A DNA stretch of 32,000 bases from Pseudidiomarina andamanensis. Its GTDB lineage: Bacteria; Pseudomonadota; Gammaproteobacteria; Enterobacterales; Alteromonadaceae. The position numbers were made by a program, and so were the translations under genes. Positions 19,979 through 29,059 of this stretch are shown one piece after another. The notes beneath the pieces are model-generated. The model worked only from the letters and a program-made list of their open reading frames with translations, was not told where the DNA came from and did not search any database. The first letter of the stretch is position 1; each line of letters starts with the position of its first letter. The stretch covers positions 900,001 to 932,000 of the forward strand of contig NZ_CP032551.1 in NCBI RefSeq assembly GCF_009734345.1, read 5' to 3'.

Positions 19979-22180
19979 ATGCCGTGGAAGCGAACGAATT
20001 TATCGTTAACATTTTGCCTGCTCGTCGGGTTGCTTTCACACACCTCAATTGCTCAAAACAATGACACCATTATTTTCACCGGTTCGCAGTACTACCCTCC
20101 GCTACAATGGCTTGACGAAAATAATCAGGCTCAAGGATTCATCACAGACCTCGAGCAAGAATTAGCGAATGCTGGTGAGTTTAATATTGAGCAACGTTTA
20201 ATCCCATGGAATCAGGCGCTTGGATTGGTTTTAACCGGAGAAGCCGATGCCGTTGCGTTAATCCCATCAGAAGCACGAAGTGCCTACTTTGATTTCACTG
20301 AGCCTTTTTATTACGTTGCCCATGGTATTTTCTCTCACCGCTCTGGCAAGCAATTCGGTAGCTTTTCTCAACTTAAAGGCAAGCGCGTTGCGGTAGCTGC
20401 AGGAGCTTTCGCTGCACAGCAGTTAACCGATACGCCGCAAAATTTTGAAGTGATTCAGGCCAGCGATGAGCTCAATTGTTTGCAGATGGTACAGACTAAA
20501 CAAGTAGATGCTTGCGTTGAAGTAACCACAACGTCACGTCATTTGATCACGAATTATAATCTCGACCTAATTCAATCGAGTCCACCATTTTGGCCGCAGT
20601 CTTATGCTTTTGGTGTTAAGAAAGGCAATACCGCATTACTTAATCGCCTCAATGAGAATTTGGCGATGTTACAAGTTAATGGAACTTATCAAGCAGTTTA
20701 TCAGCGTTGGGTTCAACAACTAGAGTGGCAGGAGCGAACCCTTTCCGACAACTTACGCGCCTTAGGTTGGTTGTTAATCAGCTTGTTATTGATTGCGGGC
20801 TTTGGGTTTTTCTGGACTTACTTACTCAAGAAACAAGTTGCACGCAAAACGTATCGTATTCAGCAAGAGCTTGCGGCTAAGACGATACTCCAAAAGAAAC
20901 TTCACTACCTTTCACAACATGATGCGATAACTGGGTTACTAAACCGGCCCGCGTTTACCGAAAAACTTGATCAAGAAATTCTTGCTGCGCCAGAAGTTAG
21001 CCCAACCGTGGTAGGTATTCGTATCGCGAATATTGATTCAATTACTTCGGTGTTCGGTTACAACATTGCCACTGACCTGATGATTGAGTTTGCCGAGCGC
21101 CTGCAAAAAAACGGATTTAAAAACGCTGCCCACTTTGGTGTTGGCCTTTTCGCAGCCGTTGCCGATTCTCATTTGACCAACGAACAGATTGTTGATTTAG
21201 CAATGCAACCGTTAAAGTTCAAATCGATTGATTTCGAGCCATTGCTGGCATTTGGACTCATTCGCAATTCTCAATTGAGCTTTGCTGAACCACCAGACGC
21301 ACAAGAATTACTGCGCCAAGTTCTTACCGCAGTATCTGTTTCACAGAAGAAACATAAATTATGGGTGGTTTATAGCCCCGGACTTGAGCCAAACGCCGAT
21401 GACTTACGTCTCTTGAAAGACTTTCATCAAGCTGGAACGCGTGACTTCTTCCTGCACTACCAACCGAAGTACAGCCTCTCAGACAATGCAGTCAAGGGAG
21501 CTGAAGCGTTATTACGCTGGCAGCACCCGCAGCTGGGTTTAGTACCACCAAGCAAATTTATTCCATTGTTAGAAGAAACCGGATTTGTCACGCAAGTGAC
21601 CCGTTGGGTGATAACAGAAACTATCGCGATGATGGCGAGACATAATTTATGTCGTACGGGGTTAGTGATCAGCATTAACGTATCAACGCGTGATCTGACA
21701 GAGCTCGGTTTTGTGAGTTTTATGCGTCATGCCGTTAAAGATATTGACCCACATTGTATTCAACTTGAAATCACTGAAACCGGCTTGATCGATGATTCCG
21801 AACGAGCTCTTTATGTTCTGTCCAAAATGAATGATCTTGGAATCAGTTGTTCGGTTGATGATTTTGGTACCGGCAATTCGTCACTGTCCTACCTGAGCAA
21901 ATTTCCCGTTTCGGAAATTAAGCTTGATAGAAGTTATGTGTATGACATTGCGAACAACGAGCGCAATCATAAAATTGTTAAGTCGACGATTGAACTAGCT
22001 CACACTCTGGGATTATCGGTGACCGCTGAAGGCGTCGAAGAACACGAAACCGTTGAGATATTGCGCGACATGAAGTGCGAGACTATTCAAGGGTTTGTGT
22101 TTTCCCGACCGATTCCAGAAAGTGACTTAATAGAGTTTTTAAAAAGCTCACCCAAACTCAAAGCATCAGGCGAGGCCTAA
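19979..22180 (+). CDS. Periplasmic solute-binding (SBP family 3) sensor - TM - degenerate GGDEF - EAL phosphodiesterase
   Basis: Signal peptide plus a PBPb-like domain (YYPP..W.D...Q..GF..DL........W...L.....GEADAV........YFDF..PF), then a TM. The GGDEF-like domain has FGVGLF in place of the signature. The EAL domain is intact: EALLRW, NVS, QLEITET, DDFGTGNSS, KLDRSY, AEGVEE, QGFVFSRP. I prefer ATG 19979, with AAGG at 19966-19969, over the TTG at 19970 used by the track. Confidence 0.85.
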   Translation: MPWKRTNLSLTFCLLVGLLSHTSIAQNNDTIIFTGSQYYPPLQWLDENNQAQGFITDLEQELANAGEFNIEQRLIPWNQALGLVLTGEADAVALIPSEARSAYFDFTEPFYYVAHGIFSHRSGKQFGSFSQLKGKRVAVAAGAFAAQQLTDTPQNFEVIQASDELNCLQMVQTKQVDACVEVTTTSRHLITNYNLDLIQSSPPFWPQSYAFGVKKGNTALLNRLNENLAMLQVNGTYQAVYQRWVQQLEWQERTLSDNLRALGWLLISLLLIAGFGFFWTYLLKKQVARKTYRIQQELAAKTILQKKLHYLSQHDAITGLLNRPAFTEKLDQEILAAPEVSPTVVGIRIANIDSITSVFGYNIATDLMIEFAERLQKNGFKNAAHFGVGLFAAVADSHLTNEQIVDLAMQPLKFKSIDFEPLLAFGLIRNSQLSFAEPPDAQELLRQVLTAVSVSQKKHKLWVVYSPGLEPNADDLRLLKDFHQAGTRDFFLHYQPKYSLSDNAVKGAEALLRWQHPQLGLVPPSKFIPLLEETGFVTQVTRWVITETIAMMARHNLCRTGLVISINVSTRDLTELGFVSFMRHAVKDIDPHCIQLEITETGLIDDSERALYVLSKMNDLGISCSVDDFGTGNSSLSYLSKFPVSEIKLDRSYVYDIANNERNHKIVKSTIELAHTLGLSVTAEGVEEHETVEILRDMKCETIQGFVFSRPIPESDLIEFLKSSPKLKASGEA

Positions 22181-22915
22181 TCCCCAATGTTCCGCGGTGC
22201 GCTTCACCGCGGCGACATTTTCCGAAGCAAGAATACGTATTGGCGTTTGCGCATACTTGGCCTCAAGCTCAAGTTTGTCACGTAACCAACTGACCATCGC
22301 TTCCCCTGAATGAATGGTTTTCACGCCACCCCAGAAATGAGAGATTTGGTCAGCAATTAACGGAAAGTGTGTACAACCAAGTAACACCACATCAGGCGTT
22401 GTTAATTCTGAAAAATAATGGCGCATGGTTTCTTCAAGAATAGCCCCCGAAAATAACGCCTCTTCGACAATCGGCACAAACAACGGTGTGGCAATAGCAT
22501 CGATATGCGCATAGCCAAGAGCGGCAATGTGACTCTGATAAACACCGGAGTTGATGGTCGAGCGCGTTGCGATTATGAGAACTCGAGATGTTTCCACCTC
22601 TAACCCGAGCTGCTGTAATGCCAAAACGCCTGGTTCCACGACGCCATATACTGGTTTATTCGAGAATTGCCGCATGGCCTCAAGTGCGGTCACACTGACC
22701 GTATTACATGCCACGACAAGACAATCGACATCCGCACCATTGAAGAATTCGACGGCTTCTAGCGCGTAACGGGTGACGGTATTTTTGTCTTTATTACCGT
22801 ACGGAACGCGTGCAGTGTCACCGTAATACAACAGCTCACTAAAGCAGCCGCTGTGTTGCAATGCCTTAGCAACGGTTAAACCGCCAACACCACTATCAAA
22901 AACCCCTACTTTCAC
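22166..22915 (-). CDS. murI: Glutamate racemase
   Basis: 249 aa. VGVFDSGVGGLTV, catalytic Cys motifs VVACNT.S and LGCTHFPL. GTG start at 22915 is preceded by GGGGAG and overlaps the kinase stop (GTGA). The 3' end overlaps the convergent EAL gene by 15 nt. Confidence 0.9.
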   Translation of the reverse strand: MKVGVFDSGVGGLTVAKALQHSGCFSELLYYGDTARVPYGNKDKNTVTRYALEAVEFFNGADVDCLVVACNTVSVTALEAMRQFSNKPVYGVVEPGVLALQQLGLEVETSRVLIIATRSTINSGVYQSHIAALGYAHIDAIATPLFVPIVEEALFSGAILEETMRHYFSELTTPDVVLLGCTHFPLIADQISHFWGGVKTIHSGEAMVSWLRDKLELEAKYAQTPIRILASENVAAVKRTAEHWGLGLA

Positions 22916-28466: not shown

Positions 28467-29059
28467 GCAATTGCCTCCACACGGTTGGATGTACGCGGAC
28501 TAGTTTGTTGCGGCACTTTCAAGTGCTTCCCCTGCGCCACCCAACCAGCAAAAACCATGGGCTGATGTTGGTAATAGTCACCCCAAATATCTTGCAACGA
28601 TAATGGCAACGCTGATTCGTTTGCGTGAGCGAGTGTGGTTAACGTAATACCAGAACGAGCTAGCTTTATATTGAGGTAACGTGTTGCCGTAAATACAACC
28701 ACATCACGTTGAAGCTCAGTGAGCGCTTTAACGATGGCAACAAAGAGATCAGGAAGGTAGTCCGCCGAAATTGCCGCCATAGACCCAACCTCAGCGATTT
28801 TTTCACGCGCCGGCATCGCTTGATTCGCTACTTCATAGAACTCAACAGGCACATCTAAATAGTATTCAGAAAATAATGCGCGTTGGTCAGCAAGCTGAAT
28901 ACCGCATGCCGCAACAATGGCATTGTCTTCAAGAATGACCAGCAGAATATCAGGCAGGCTTTGCAGACAAGCTTTAAAGCTTATCCAATACCGCTCACAA
29001 ATAAAGTGTTCAACATCATGCCGACGGCTGTGAGAACGGTTAATCAGTTCATACTGCAT
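28460..29059 (-). CDS. Thermostable-hemolysin (delta-VPH, T_hemolysin) family protein, probably an acyltransferase-fold enzyme
   Basis: About 199 aa. The pattern R..VE.FI...Y...F.A.......L....E.......ACGI..A....LFSE.YLD.P.E ... I.EVGS.A ... VVFTAT..L...L.R.G.....L..A......L......WG.YY...P.V.AG matches my memory of that family. No signal peptide or TM. I prefer ATG 29059, with AAGGGG upstream, over the track TTG at 29065. Confidence 0.65.
   Translation of the reverse strand: MQYELINRSHSRRHDVEHFICERYWISFKACLQSLPDILLVILEDNAIVAACGIQLADQRALFSEYYLDVPVEFYEVANQAMPAREKIAEVGSMAAISADYLPDLFVAIVKALTELQRDVVVFTATRYLNIKLARSGITLTTLAHANESALPLSLQDIWGDYYQHQPMVFAGWVAQGKHLKVPQQTSPRTSNRVEAIAC

Follow-up and report, generated by a model that had tools for sequence, protein, structure and literature searches.

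What do the eight closely packed minus-strand genes of a 32,000-nucleotide stretch of the Pseudidiomarina andamanensis genome (NZ_CP032551.1, positions 900,001 to 932,000; the whole stretch is the window here) make, and what switches them on? A sequence-only reading of this DNA had joined four enzymes, an acyltransferase-fold protein, an adenylating ligase of the ANL superfamily, a heme-oxygenase-like diiron oxidase (HDO) and a short-chain dehydrogenase/reductase (SDR), to a tetratricopeptide-repeat (TPR) protein, a two-component system (TCS) of response regulator (RR) and histidine kinase (HK), and murI. It proposed that the enzymes activate and oxidatively tailor a fatty-acyl or similar carboxylate into a small lipid or signal whose production or perception is coupled to the TPR protein and the TCS. 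Our analysis firmly supports a conserved, autoregulated operon in which control of the PmrA/BqsR class acts on a mobile cassette of cytoplasmic enzymes and a secreted TatT/BstC-like protein. The fuller answer that we favor, an autoregulated PmrA/BqsR-class operon with a mobile five-gene lipid-tailoring cassette as its cargo, is offered tentatively, at somewhat less than an even chance of being right. The genes are the following.

29059..22166, minus strand: eight-gene operon, in the order T_hemolysin, ANL ligase, HDO, SDR, TPR, RR, HK, murI
28460..29059, minus strand: T_hemolysin-family protein, a predicted N-acyltransferase of LuxI/FeeM fold (PF12261, 150.6 bits against a cut-off of 27)
27030..28466, minus strand: ANL-superfamily adenylating ligase (PF00501), with Arg for Lys at A10
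26344..27033, minus strand: HDO (PF14518, 100.6 bits), with six ligands
25550..26347, minus strand: classical SDR oxidoreductase (NF006565, 284 bits against a cut-off of 238)
24912..25553, minus strand: secreted TPR protein, by its model of the TatT/BstC lipid-binding class, with a signal peptide and no lipobox Cys
24246..24911, minus strand: OmpR-family RR, PmrA/BasR-like (BasR 4s04/8jo2, E = 6.5e-50)
22912..24258 (alternative start 24297), minus strand: sensor HK (HisKA/HATPase), with two transmembrane (TM) helices and a periplasmic domain of about 120 aa
22166..22915, minus strand: murI, glutamate racemase (TIGR00067, 209 bits against a cut-off of 147; Pfam/NCBIfam)

All open reading frames (ORFs) and junctions were re-verified, and the eight genes indeed follow one another without intergenic space. 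The T_hemolysin and ligase genes overlap by 7 nt (28460-28466), the ligase/HDO, HDO/SDR and SDR/TPR pairs by 4 nt apiece (ATGA), and the TPR and RR genes abut as TAAATG. The RR/HK overlap is 13 nt when the HK starts at ATG 24258 and 52 nt when it starts at GTG 24297, the equivalent of 24258 being the sole start available in several orthologues; a GTGA overlap joins HK to murI. The domain assignments of the earlier reading (PF12261, PF00501, PF14518, PF00106, TPR repeats, an OmpR-type RR, a HisKA kinase and murI) were borne out by Pfam and NCBIfam, as was its statement that no carrier protein, polyketide synthase or nonribosomal peptide synthetase (NRPS) module, or transporter lies between 22166 and 29059. 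Matches to promoter and terminator consensus sequences inside the operon were not above their frequency in shuffled sequence. The enzyme-gene junctions also overlap or almost abut in eight independently annotated loci of other orders; given these junctions, and the ligase-HDO gene fusions that at least three lineages show (see below), chance in this one genome does not account for the close packing.

Is the arrangement kept elsewhere? The window proteins were mapped onto 27 genome loci recovered with the HDO as seed, and further contigs and plasmids were added through homologues of the T_hemolysin, TPR and HDO proteins; the genome-collection scan was HDO-seeded, and cassettes without an HDO would escape it. 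The check proposed with the earlier reading, a neighborhood search for co-occurring T_hemolysin, AMP-binding, HDO and SDR genes with or without the TPR, RR and HK genes, came out in its favor: the series T_hemolysin-ANL-HDO-SDR-TPR is syntenic in 36 loci (L numbers below) across Gamma-, Beta- and Alphaproteobacteria. The five genes have the same order and strand in the Idiomarinaceae, Glaciecola, Alteromonas, Pseudoalteromonas and Grimontia (Vibrionaceae), and likewise in Thiotrichales, Xanthomonadales, Pseudomonas zhanjiangensis, a betaproteobacterium of the Thiobacillaceae and two alphaproteobacterial metagenome-assembled genomes (MAGs). The TPR protein and the HDO are the best-conserved proteins of the cassette; the former shares 99% identity with a P. 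marina entry, and for the latter the identity is 85-86% in P. tainanensis and in a related MAG.

In most loci the TPR gene is followed by those for RR and HK, the exceptions being Glaciecola, A. facilis, L021 and the alphaproteobacteria. The five genes also stand alone, without RR and HK, on a clinical C. freundii plasmid and on a conjugative V. parahaemolyticus plasmid. The two plasmid cassettes (L033, 6925-11091; L034, 6925-11076) have near-identical gene lengths and spacing, which suggests recent horizontal transfer. Because the TPR gene stays with the enzyme genes where RR and HK are not adjacent, plasmids included, the five-gene cassette, TPR protein and all, is the mobile functional unit, and the TPR protein, which had been grouped with the sensor, belongs instead to the enzyme cassette. 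The broader proposal that enzymes, TPR protein and RR/HK form one conserved functional unit is upheld by the synteny, by the ligase-HDO fusions and by a conserved regulator box upstream. The membership of murI does not survive this comparison: it adjoins the kinase gene in L002, L003 and L026 alone, the nearest relatives within Pseudidiomarina, and is therefore taken as a recent, lineage-specific passenger. The plasmid cassettes have as neighbors the redox and stress genes for cytochrome b561, glyoxalase III, a flavodoxin and a heavy-metal TCS.

What drives the operon? Three elements lie ahead of its first gene.

29160..29192, minus strand: hairpin just after the stop codon of the upstream beta-lactamase-family gene (-21.1 kcal/mol, z = -6.0)
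29121..29137, minus strand: regulator box TTTAAG-aattc-CTTAAG (TTAAG-N6-TTAAG) of PmrA/BqsR type, 77 nt upstream of the first ATG
29105..29110, minus strand: -10-like TAATCT (TAnnnT), exactly 10 nt downstream of the box, with a predicted transcription start at about 29098

The 144-nt gap (29060-29203) and its strong hairpin exist as first described; the gap had been taken for a leader, and it consists instead of the hairpin, the regulator box, the -10 element and a 5' untranslated region of about 39 nt. A box in place of the -35 element, at this spacing from TAnnnT, is the geometry of activated promoters of the PhoB/OmpR family. A downstream TAnnnT at precisely this 10-nt distance accompanies 17 of 17 operon boxes taken from different loci. 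An exact TTAAG-N6-TTAAG is found 46-85 nt upstream of the first-gene start (as annotated or as the ORF start) in 24 TCS-linked loci, those of Grimontia, Thiotrichales, Xanthomonadales, Thalassomonas and the P. carrageenovora plasmid among them, and the half-sites are conserved while the spacers vary; base composition alone predicts about 3e-4 such boxes per 250 nt. L035 and L036 have one-mismatch YTTAAK variants. Of the cassette-only loci, Glaciecola alone has an exact box, L034 has a degenerate one, and L021, L023, L024 and L033 have none. The A. facilis locus (L031, about 9925-9960), which has no adjacent TCS, has a window-like promoter with a spacer 1 nt shorter (ATTAAG-attc-CTTAAG); this box may be either decaying or read by a regulator encoded elsewhere. 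In P. aeruginosa the BqsR box has been defined by experiment as 5'-TTAAG(N)6-TTAAG-3' and is tied to Fe(II) sensing (PMC13522522); the operon box matches it exactly.

The hairpin contains a GGGAAC motif (29176-29181) that does not vary in any Idiomarinaceae leader, where it precedes the box by about 43 nt, and is kept where the upstream gene differs (a divergent gene in L004, dgkA in L008). The GGGAAC/hairpin element may be more than the terminator of the upstream gene, perhaps a site for a second regulator. A riboswitch or other known RNA in the gap was considered and rejected, as Rfam returned only sub-threshold matches for window positions 29130-29226 (FinP, 24.8 bits against a gathering score of 45; traJ_5, 26.9 against 50), which we ascribe to the hairpin and regard as chance.

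What else would the regulator control? The 32 kb hold only one other exact box, in the intergenic region between two divergent genes.

17807..17823, no strand assigned: second exact box CTTAAG-N5-CTTAAG, with a third half-site CTTAAT at 17827-17832
17387..17761, minus strand: dgkA, diacylglycerol kinase, divergent from the transferase gene; probable regulon member
17870..19837, plus strand: membrane enzyme of the Sulfatase family, LtaS/OpgB phosphoglycerol-transferase-like, 655 aa; probable regulon member

On both sides of this box a TAnnnT stands 10 nt away (TACCCT, 17834-17839; TAGTCT, 17791-17796), with predicted transcription starts near 17846 and 17784, and the box with its bidirectional geometry recurs in L002, L003, L008 and L015. 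Across the Idiomarinaceae, the unit of transferase, box and dgkA accompanies the cassette in three arrangements: directly upstream of it in Idiomarina, directly downstream of the kinase gene in several Pseudidiomarina, and, in the window, on the far side of murI and a GGDEF-EAL gene. Grimontia has a 44%-identical transferase with a box, placed after the HK gene. Judging by these promoters, the regulator probably co-drives dgkA and the LtaS/OpgB-like gene, and the association of the second box with a pair of lipid enzymes points to an envelope or metal-stress regulon. The direct precedent for such a gene set is the PmrAB-like CarRS system of V. vulnificus, which activates dgkA-eptA-mdoB. CarRS, too, is self-activating and pairs DgkA with Sulfatase-family headgroup transferases. 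However, the CarR motif is GACA-N6-TACA, as opposed to TTAAG-N6-TTAAG here, CarRS has an EptA-type enzyme whereas the window has only the LtaS/OpgB-like one, and no T_hemolysin cassette is reported for CarRS. Orthology of our RR/HK pair to CarRS/VprAB was rejected, as that system sits in carRS-ompV-virK and its CarR motif differs; the Rvv and Vxr systems, which use DUF3404 and DUF2861, are unrelated. Downstream of dgkA, four closely spaced minus-strand genes (14602-17366) encode a GNAT (Acetyltransf_3), a LOR/tubby-like protein, a histidine-phosphatase-family protein and a Methyltransf_32 protein, and transcription from the box-dependent promoter may run through dgkA into this set.

The layout recalls pmrCAB, in which an enzyme gene is co-transcribed upstream of the regulator and kinase genes from an autoregulated promoter, as in this operon. 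The likeness to pmrCAB/PmrAB (BasRS) and to BqsRS of P. aeruginosa extends to an OmpR-family regulator nearest BasR/PmrA, to the tandem YTTAAK box and to the co-regulation of envelope-lipid enzymes; the cargo differs from that of PmrAB, being the five-gene cassette and not the EptA or Arn enzymes. Immediately after TM1, the kinase has HEVDE in the Idiomarinaceae, HEINE in Grimontia and a weaker E-x-x-E/D elsewhere, a pattern that may recall the ExxE motifs by which PmrB and BqsS bind iron. Three further genes extend the operon in five other lineages (Thalassomonas, Thiotrichales, Xanthomonadales, L027 and the P. carrageenovora plasmid). They encode a cupredoxin, a permease of the FTR1 family in which QExxE and RExxE motifs occur, and a putative porin, a protein of about 240 aa without a Pfam match that has ...EYEF at its end and looks like an outer-membrane barrel. 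In L028 the cupredoxin is fused to the C-terminus of the HK. The coordinates of this uptake trio are as follows.

L018: 14200-16080
L025: 14166-16072
L027: 3673-5588
L028: about 16450 to 18279
L029: 16374-18280
L032: 8462-10255

The presence of cupredoxin, FTR1 and putative porin genes in the operon fits a metal-linked input. On account of the PmrA/BqsR-type box, the co-regulation of dgkA with the LtaS/OpgB-like gene, and cupredoxin/FTR1 elsewhere, the TCS reads as one of the stress or metal type. It looks like an envelope or metal-stress system of the PmrA/BqsR class, not a dedicated receptor for the product, and perception of the product by the kinase is, on balance, less likely.

The trio also invites a different account of the whole operon, namely the biosynthesis of a small metallophore or an accessory role in iron or copper uptake, for example an N-acyl-N-hydroxy chelator made with the HDO as N-oxygenase, working together with the uptake genes for cupredoxin, FTR1 and porin and controlled by a metal-sensing kinase. 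Several HDOs are N-oxygenases (SznF is one), and hydroxamate pathways couple N-hydroxylation to GNAT acylation. Cupredoxin_1, FTR1 and the beta-barrel-like protein do belong to the operon in Pseudoalteromonas, Thalassomonas, Thiotrichales and Xanthomonadales, and the Fe(II) connection of the BqsR box (PMC13522522) would suit such a role. Yet the trio is missing from the window, from every Idiomarinaceae and Vibrionaceae locus and from the plasmid copies L033 and L034, the linked genes include neither a TonB-dependent receptor nor a siderophore exporter, the likeness of the TPR protein is to lipid binders and not to siderophore-binding proteins, and the co-regulated genes of the window encode lipid enzymes. 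We consider a metallophore decidedly improbable.

What, then, do the enzymes make? The AlphaFold model of the T_hemolysin protein (pLDDT 89.6) has as its best Foldseek matches in the PDB the enzymes TofI, LasI, MesI, BjaI, RpaI and FeeM (TM 0.54-0.62), with generic GNATs ranking below the N-acyl-homoserine lactone (AHL) synthases and FeeM. On this model the protein is predicted to be an N-acyltransferase. Searches of the PDB by sequence, with the single sequence and with the family profile, gave no match and no AHL synthase. The acyl-CoA-dependent AHL synthases (BjaI, RpaI and MesI) and FeeM, which share the fold, acylate an amine from an activated acyl donor, and CoA-dependent AHL synthases depend on a partner ligase.

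Could the protein be what its name says? The delta-VPH/T_hemolysin family reportedly owes its name to a V. parahaemolyticus gene that gave hemolysis once cloned, work attributed to Taniguchi in 1990. N-acyl amino acid synthases give rise to similar phenotypes. The name, and the published reading of the cluster as a virulence cluster (PMC6262041), are what would support a protein toxin. The T_hemolysin protein, however, has no signal peptide and has a confidently modeled enzyme fold of the GNAT/LuxI type, it is always co-transcribed with three enzymes, and it is common in free-living marine bacteria. That it is itself a toxin is therefore highly improbable.

The fold gives more to an account in terms of autoinduction akin to quorum sensing, in which a diffusible acyl signal, formed by the LuxI-fold enzyme together with its partners, would be handed to the kinase by the periplasmic TPR protein and would, through the regulator, raise expression of the synthase operon. 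The closest structural relatives of the T_hemolysin protein are AHL synthases, some of them fed acyl-CoA by a dedicated ligase; synthase genes and TCS share one autoregulated promoter; the TPR gene lies between the enzyme genes and the regulator gene; and synthase-plus-TCS operons exist (phcBSR, cqsA/cqsS, rpf). Against it, the retention of the TPR protein with the enzymes where no TCS is adjacent, on plasmids too, argues that it is no dedicated co-sensor, and the regulator, its box and the co-regulated genes (dgkA and the LtaS-like gene; FTR1/cupredoxin elsewhere) resemble a stress or metal regulon of the PmrA/BqsR kind. Moreover, no LuxI match was obtained at the sequence level, and no LuxR is present. 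Autoinduction is thus judged unlikely. The likeness to the rpf/diffusible signal factor cluster is one of concept only (an acyl-CoA ligase, a lipid-signal synthase and a TCS); the systems are not homologous, and by Pfam there is no RpfF crotonase, RpfC hybrid kinase or RpfG HD-GYP protein here.

The ligase has motifs A3 (TSGSTGxPKG), A5 (YGxSE), A7 (TGD) and A8 (GRxxN). At the A10 position (near residues 446-452, as read from the alignment), Arg replaces the catalytic Lys in 14 of 14 orthologues (T-x-x-G/M-R), an unusual trait among adenylating enzymes. The substrate is probably a carboxylic acid. Amino-acid activation of the NRPS type was rejected, as the alpha-amino-binding Asp of the LgrA FDxS motif aligns to a Leu, and the high PDB score of the ligase with LgrA reflects the two A-domains of the latter. 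Lipid A aminoacylation of the AlmEFG type was likewise set aside, there being no carrier-protein ORF between ligase and acyltransferase.

A search with the HDO of 1.84 billion representative proteins returned 1421 proteins at E <= 1e-3 and 73 at E <= 1e-30. In L014, L019/L020, L023 and L024 one ORF of 710-744 aa encodes both ligase and HDO, with a short linker between the full-length alignments, and at least 18 of the top 150 HDO representatives measure about 680-750 aa and have the HDO as their C-terminal part. These recurrent fusions argue that ligase and oxidase work as a physically coupled pair; we know of no characterised HDO that is fused to an ANL ligase. The six metal ligands E80, H83, E137, H168, D172 and H175 are invariant across 14 orthologues, with the H-x3-D-x2-H spacing seen in CADD. 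The protein shares with the characterised HDOs (CADD/pABA synthase, MboA, UndA and SznF) the heme-oxygenase-like fold and the set of three His and three carboxylate ligands, yet its closest solved relative is 3dde (1.6e-20), a structural-genomics entry of unknown function, and CADD/pABA synthase and MboA are remote (E about 1e-3 to 1e-4). The solved structures nearest to the SDR are FabG-like enzymes and glucose/ribitol dehydrogenases (E about 1e-20).

The product of the fifth cassette gene leaves the cytoplasm. The TPR protein begins with MKLSTIILTTVLFIGVSTSTYAQE, which contains no cysteine and hence no lipoprotein signal. Its model (pLDDT 90.3) has as best natural structural matches Es_TatT (8g52/8g53) and BstC (7t1s), at TM 0.67-0.69, followed by the TatT Tp0956 (3u64/4di3, TM 0.58-0.63) and the TPR domain of PTPIP51 (7cc7). 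The protein thus models as a periplasmic lipid binder of the TatT/BstC type. Family profiles stay below threshold: NCBIfam BstC scores 41.5 bits against a cut-off of 350, and Pfam TAtT reaches 17.3 bits against 26.5 with the homologue P0343 only. Faint precomputed RMD1-3 and TAtT matches among the homologues point in the same direction as the BstC match; an exact-sequence look-up of the window protein returned no record. TatT and BstC are grouped in a single superfamily whose members bind lipids in the periplasm, and palmitate is bound in 8G52; TatTs are enriched in marine bacteria, about a quarter of them have genomic partners other than TRAP, and BstC, which serves sterol export, adjoins sterol-biosynthesis genes (PMC11713862). 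Like BstC, the TPR gene adjoins the enzyme genes for its presumed ligand.

This resemblance raises the question of whether the cassette consumes lipids rather than making them. In such a scheme for scavenging or detoxifying exogenous fatty acids, the TatT-like protein would capture a long-chain fatty acid in the periplasm, the ligase would trap it in the cytoplasm through activation, and HDO, SDR and acyltransferase would modify it and attach it to an acceptor. Ligase-driven vectorial acylation has a precedent in FadD. The best structural match of the TPR protein is a palmitate-bound Es_TatT, characterised TatTs bind long-chain fatty acids, act in uptake and are enriched in marine bacteria (PMC11713862), and free fatty acids stress the envelope, which fits control by a stress-responsive TCS. 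However, no TRAP or other importer is linked at any locus, BstC, an equally close structural relative, works in export beside biosynthetic genes, and a diiron oxidase fused to a ligase suggests dedicated tailoring over catabolism. On this evidence, scavenging seems to us an unlikely function.

We return to the preferred reading, in which the cassette would tailor a lipid under stress control. A cue from the periplasm (envelope stress or a metal cation is likeliest) would lead to phosphorylated regulator on the TTAAG-N6-TTAAG box, which replaces the -35 element, and so to transcription of all eight genes; dgkA and the LtaS/OpgB-like transferase would be driven as well, making up an envelope-remodeling regulon. 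The ANL ligase would activate a fatty or similar carboxylate, the diiron HDO, coupled to it, would oxidize the substrate of the ligase with O2, and the SDR would adjust the hydroxyl or carbonyl so made. The LuxI/FeeM-fold T_hemolysin protein would then move the acyl group to an amine acceptor to give an N-acyl amphiphile, and the TatT/BstC-like protein would bind the lipid product in the periplasm and ferry it between the membranes. More broadly, the five genes probably form or alter a membrane-active molecule derived from a fatty acid; our best guess for the product is an oxidatively tailored N-acyl lipid. An N-acyl amphiphile would account for the "hemolysin" phenotype seen on cloning of the founding family member, and lipid chemistry fits the lipid enzymes DgkA and the LtaS/OpgB-like protein under the same box. 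Of the proposal made for this locus at the outset, activation of a fatty-acyl or other carboxylate and O2-dependent tailoring remain probable, with the LuxI/FeeM fold as added support, and a dedicated coupling of the product to the kinase as its receptor becomes less likely. A bolder version is doubtful: a new class of N-acyl lipids would arise by a new HDO reaction on a substrate held or passed by the Arg-A10 ligase, the "thermostable hemolysin" would be a lipid synthase, a TatT-like chaperone would carry the lipid over the periplasm, and the lipid would be an envelope component or a secreted effector under metal or envelope-stress control, tied in some lineages to uptake of the FTR1 type.

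Several observations weigh against the preferred reading. The T_hemolysin protein resembles LuxI and FeeM in fold only, at 11-15% identity; a Pfam scan even at E <= 10 yields PF12261 alone and no LuxI or FeeM family match, and the SAM-binding residues of LuxI are not identifiable in it. In Thalassomonas sp. RHCl1 (L018, 7700-8340) there is no T_hemolysin gene at the head of the operon but an unrelated small ORF, the box, ANL, HDO, SDR, TPR, RR and HK genes and uptake trio all being retained. With Arg at A10, the ligase may not act as a standard ANL ligase. Regulator and kinase fall below the NCBIfam equivalog cut-offs for PmrA/PmrB and QseB/QseC (for the regulator, PmrA 216 bits against 330 and QseB 205 against 345 are the best matches, both sub-equivalog), and the HExxE motif of the kinase, which weakens outside the Idiomarinaceae and Grimontia, is only suggestive of metal binding. 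The TPR protein is without the lipoprotein signal that BstC and TatT carry, having a signal of the signal-peptidase-I type, and no RND or TRAP partner is linked to it. No flippase or exporter is encoded in the cassette, and the lipid could move either outward or inward. The proposed chemical steps are drawn from folds, motifs and gene fusions.

How much of this is new? Literature searches (PF12261, thermostable hemolysin, HDO neighborhoods, delta-VPH and Pseudoalteromonas) matched no characterised pathway, in agreement with the earlier statement that the four enzymes belong to no named one. The cluster is nonetheless not the wholly unnoticed orphan that it was thought to be, for Gobet et al. 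(2018) had described a ten-gene version on a P. carrageenovora plasmid (PCAR9_p0005-p0014), termed it a potential virulence cluster and found it conserved in 24 Pseudoalteromonas genomes, V. alginolyticus and Nautella; their account is descriptive only, with no fold, regulatory or biochemical analysis (PMC6262041). The P. carrageenovora cluster has the same cassette and RR/HK together with the cupredoxin, FTR1 and putative porin genes, whereas the window has murI and no uptake genes. The cluster amounts to a stress-regulated operon for a lipid or small molecule, assembled from known enzyme superfamilies, in which the ANL-HDO fusion, the A10 Arg, the T_hemolysin fold and the TatT-like partner are unusual.

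The consequences reach beyond this genome. The widely propagated annotation as thermostable hemolysin (delta-VPH) would be re-read as that of an acyltransferase in a five-gene pathway. The orphan cassette is compact and horizontally mobile, and occurs in marine bacteria, Vibrio, Pseudomonas and on a clinical Citrobacter plasmid. The naturally fused ligase-HDO pair, with an HDO far from every characterised one, is a tractable target for enzymology, and the cassette is a new genomic partner, and hence a candidate ligand source, for the TatT/BstC superfamily. From the conserved box and the geometry of the promoter, predictions also follow for PmrA/BqsR-class control of envelope-lipid genes outside the enterics and pseudomonads.

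The flanks of the operon are of more local character. At its distal end, murI and a convergent gene for an SBP_bac_3-GGDEF-EAL protein (19970-22180) overlap at their 3' ends by 15 nt (22166-22180), where a terminator-like stem is located (22165-22181). Upstream of the operon, at window positions 29204-31504, lie the beta-lactamase-family gene (463 aa) and a gene for a clan-AA aspartyl protease with tandem domains (297 aa). Both adjoin the operon only in the closest relatives (L002, L003 and L026), and in L004 and L005 the protease gene is present in two tandem copies.

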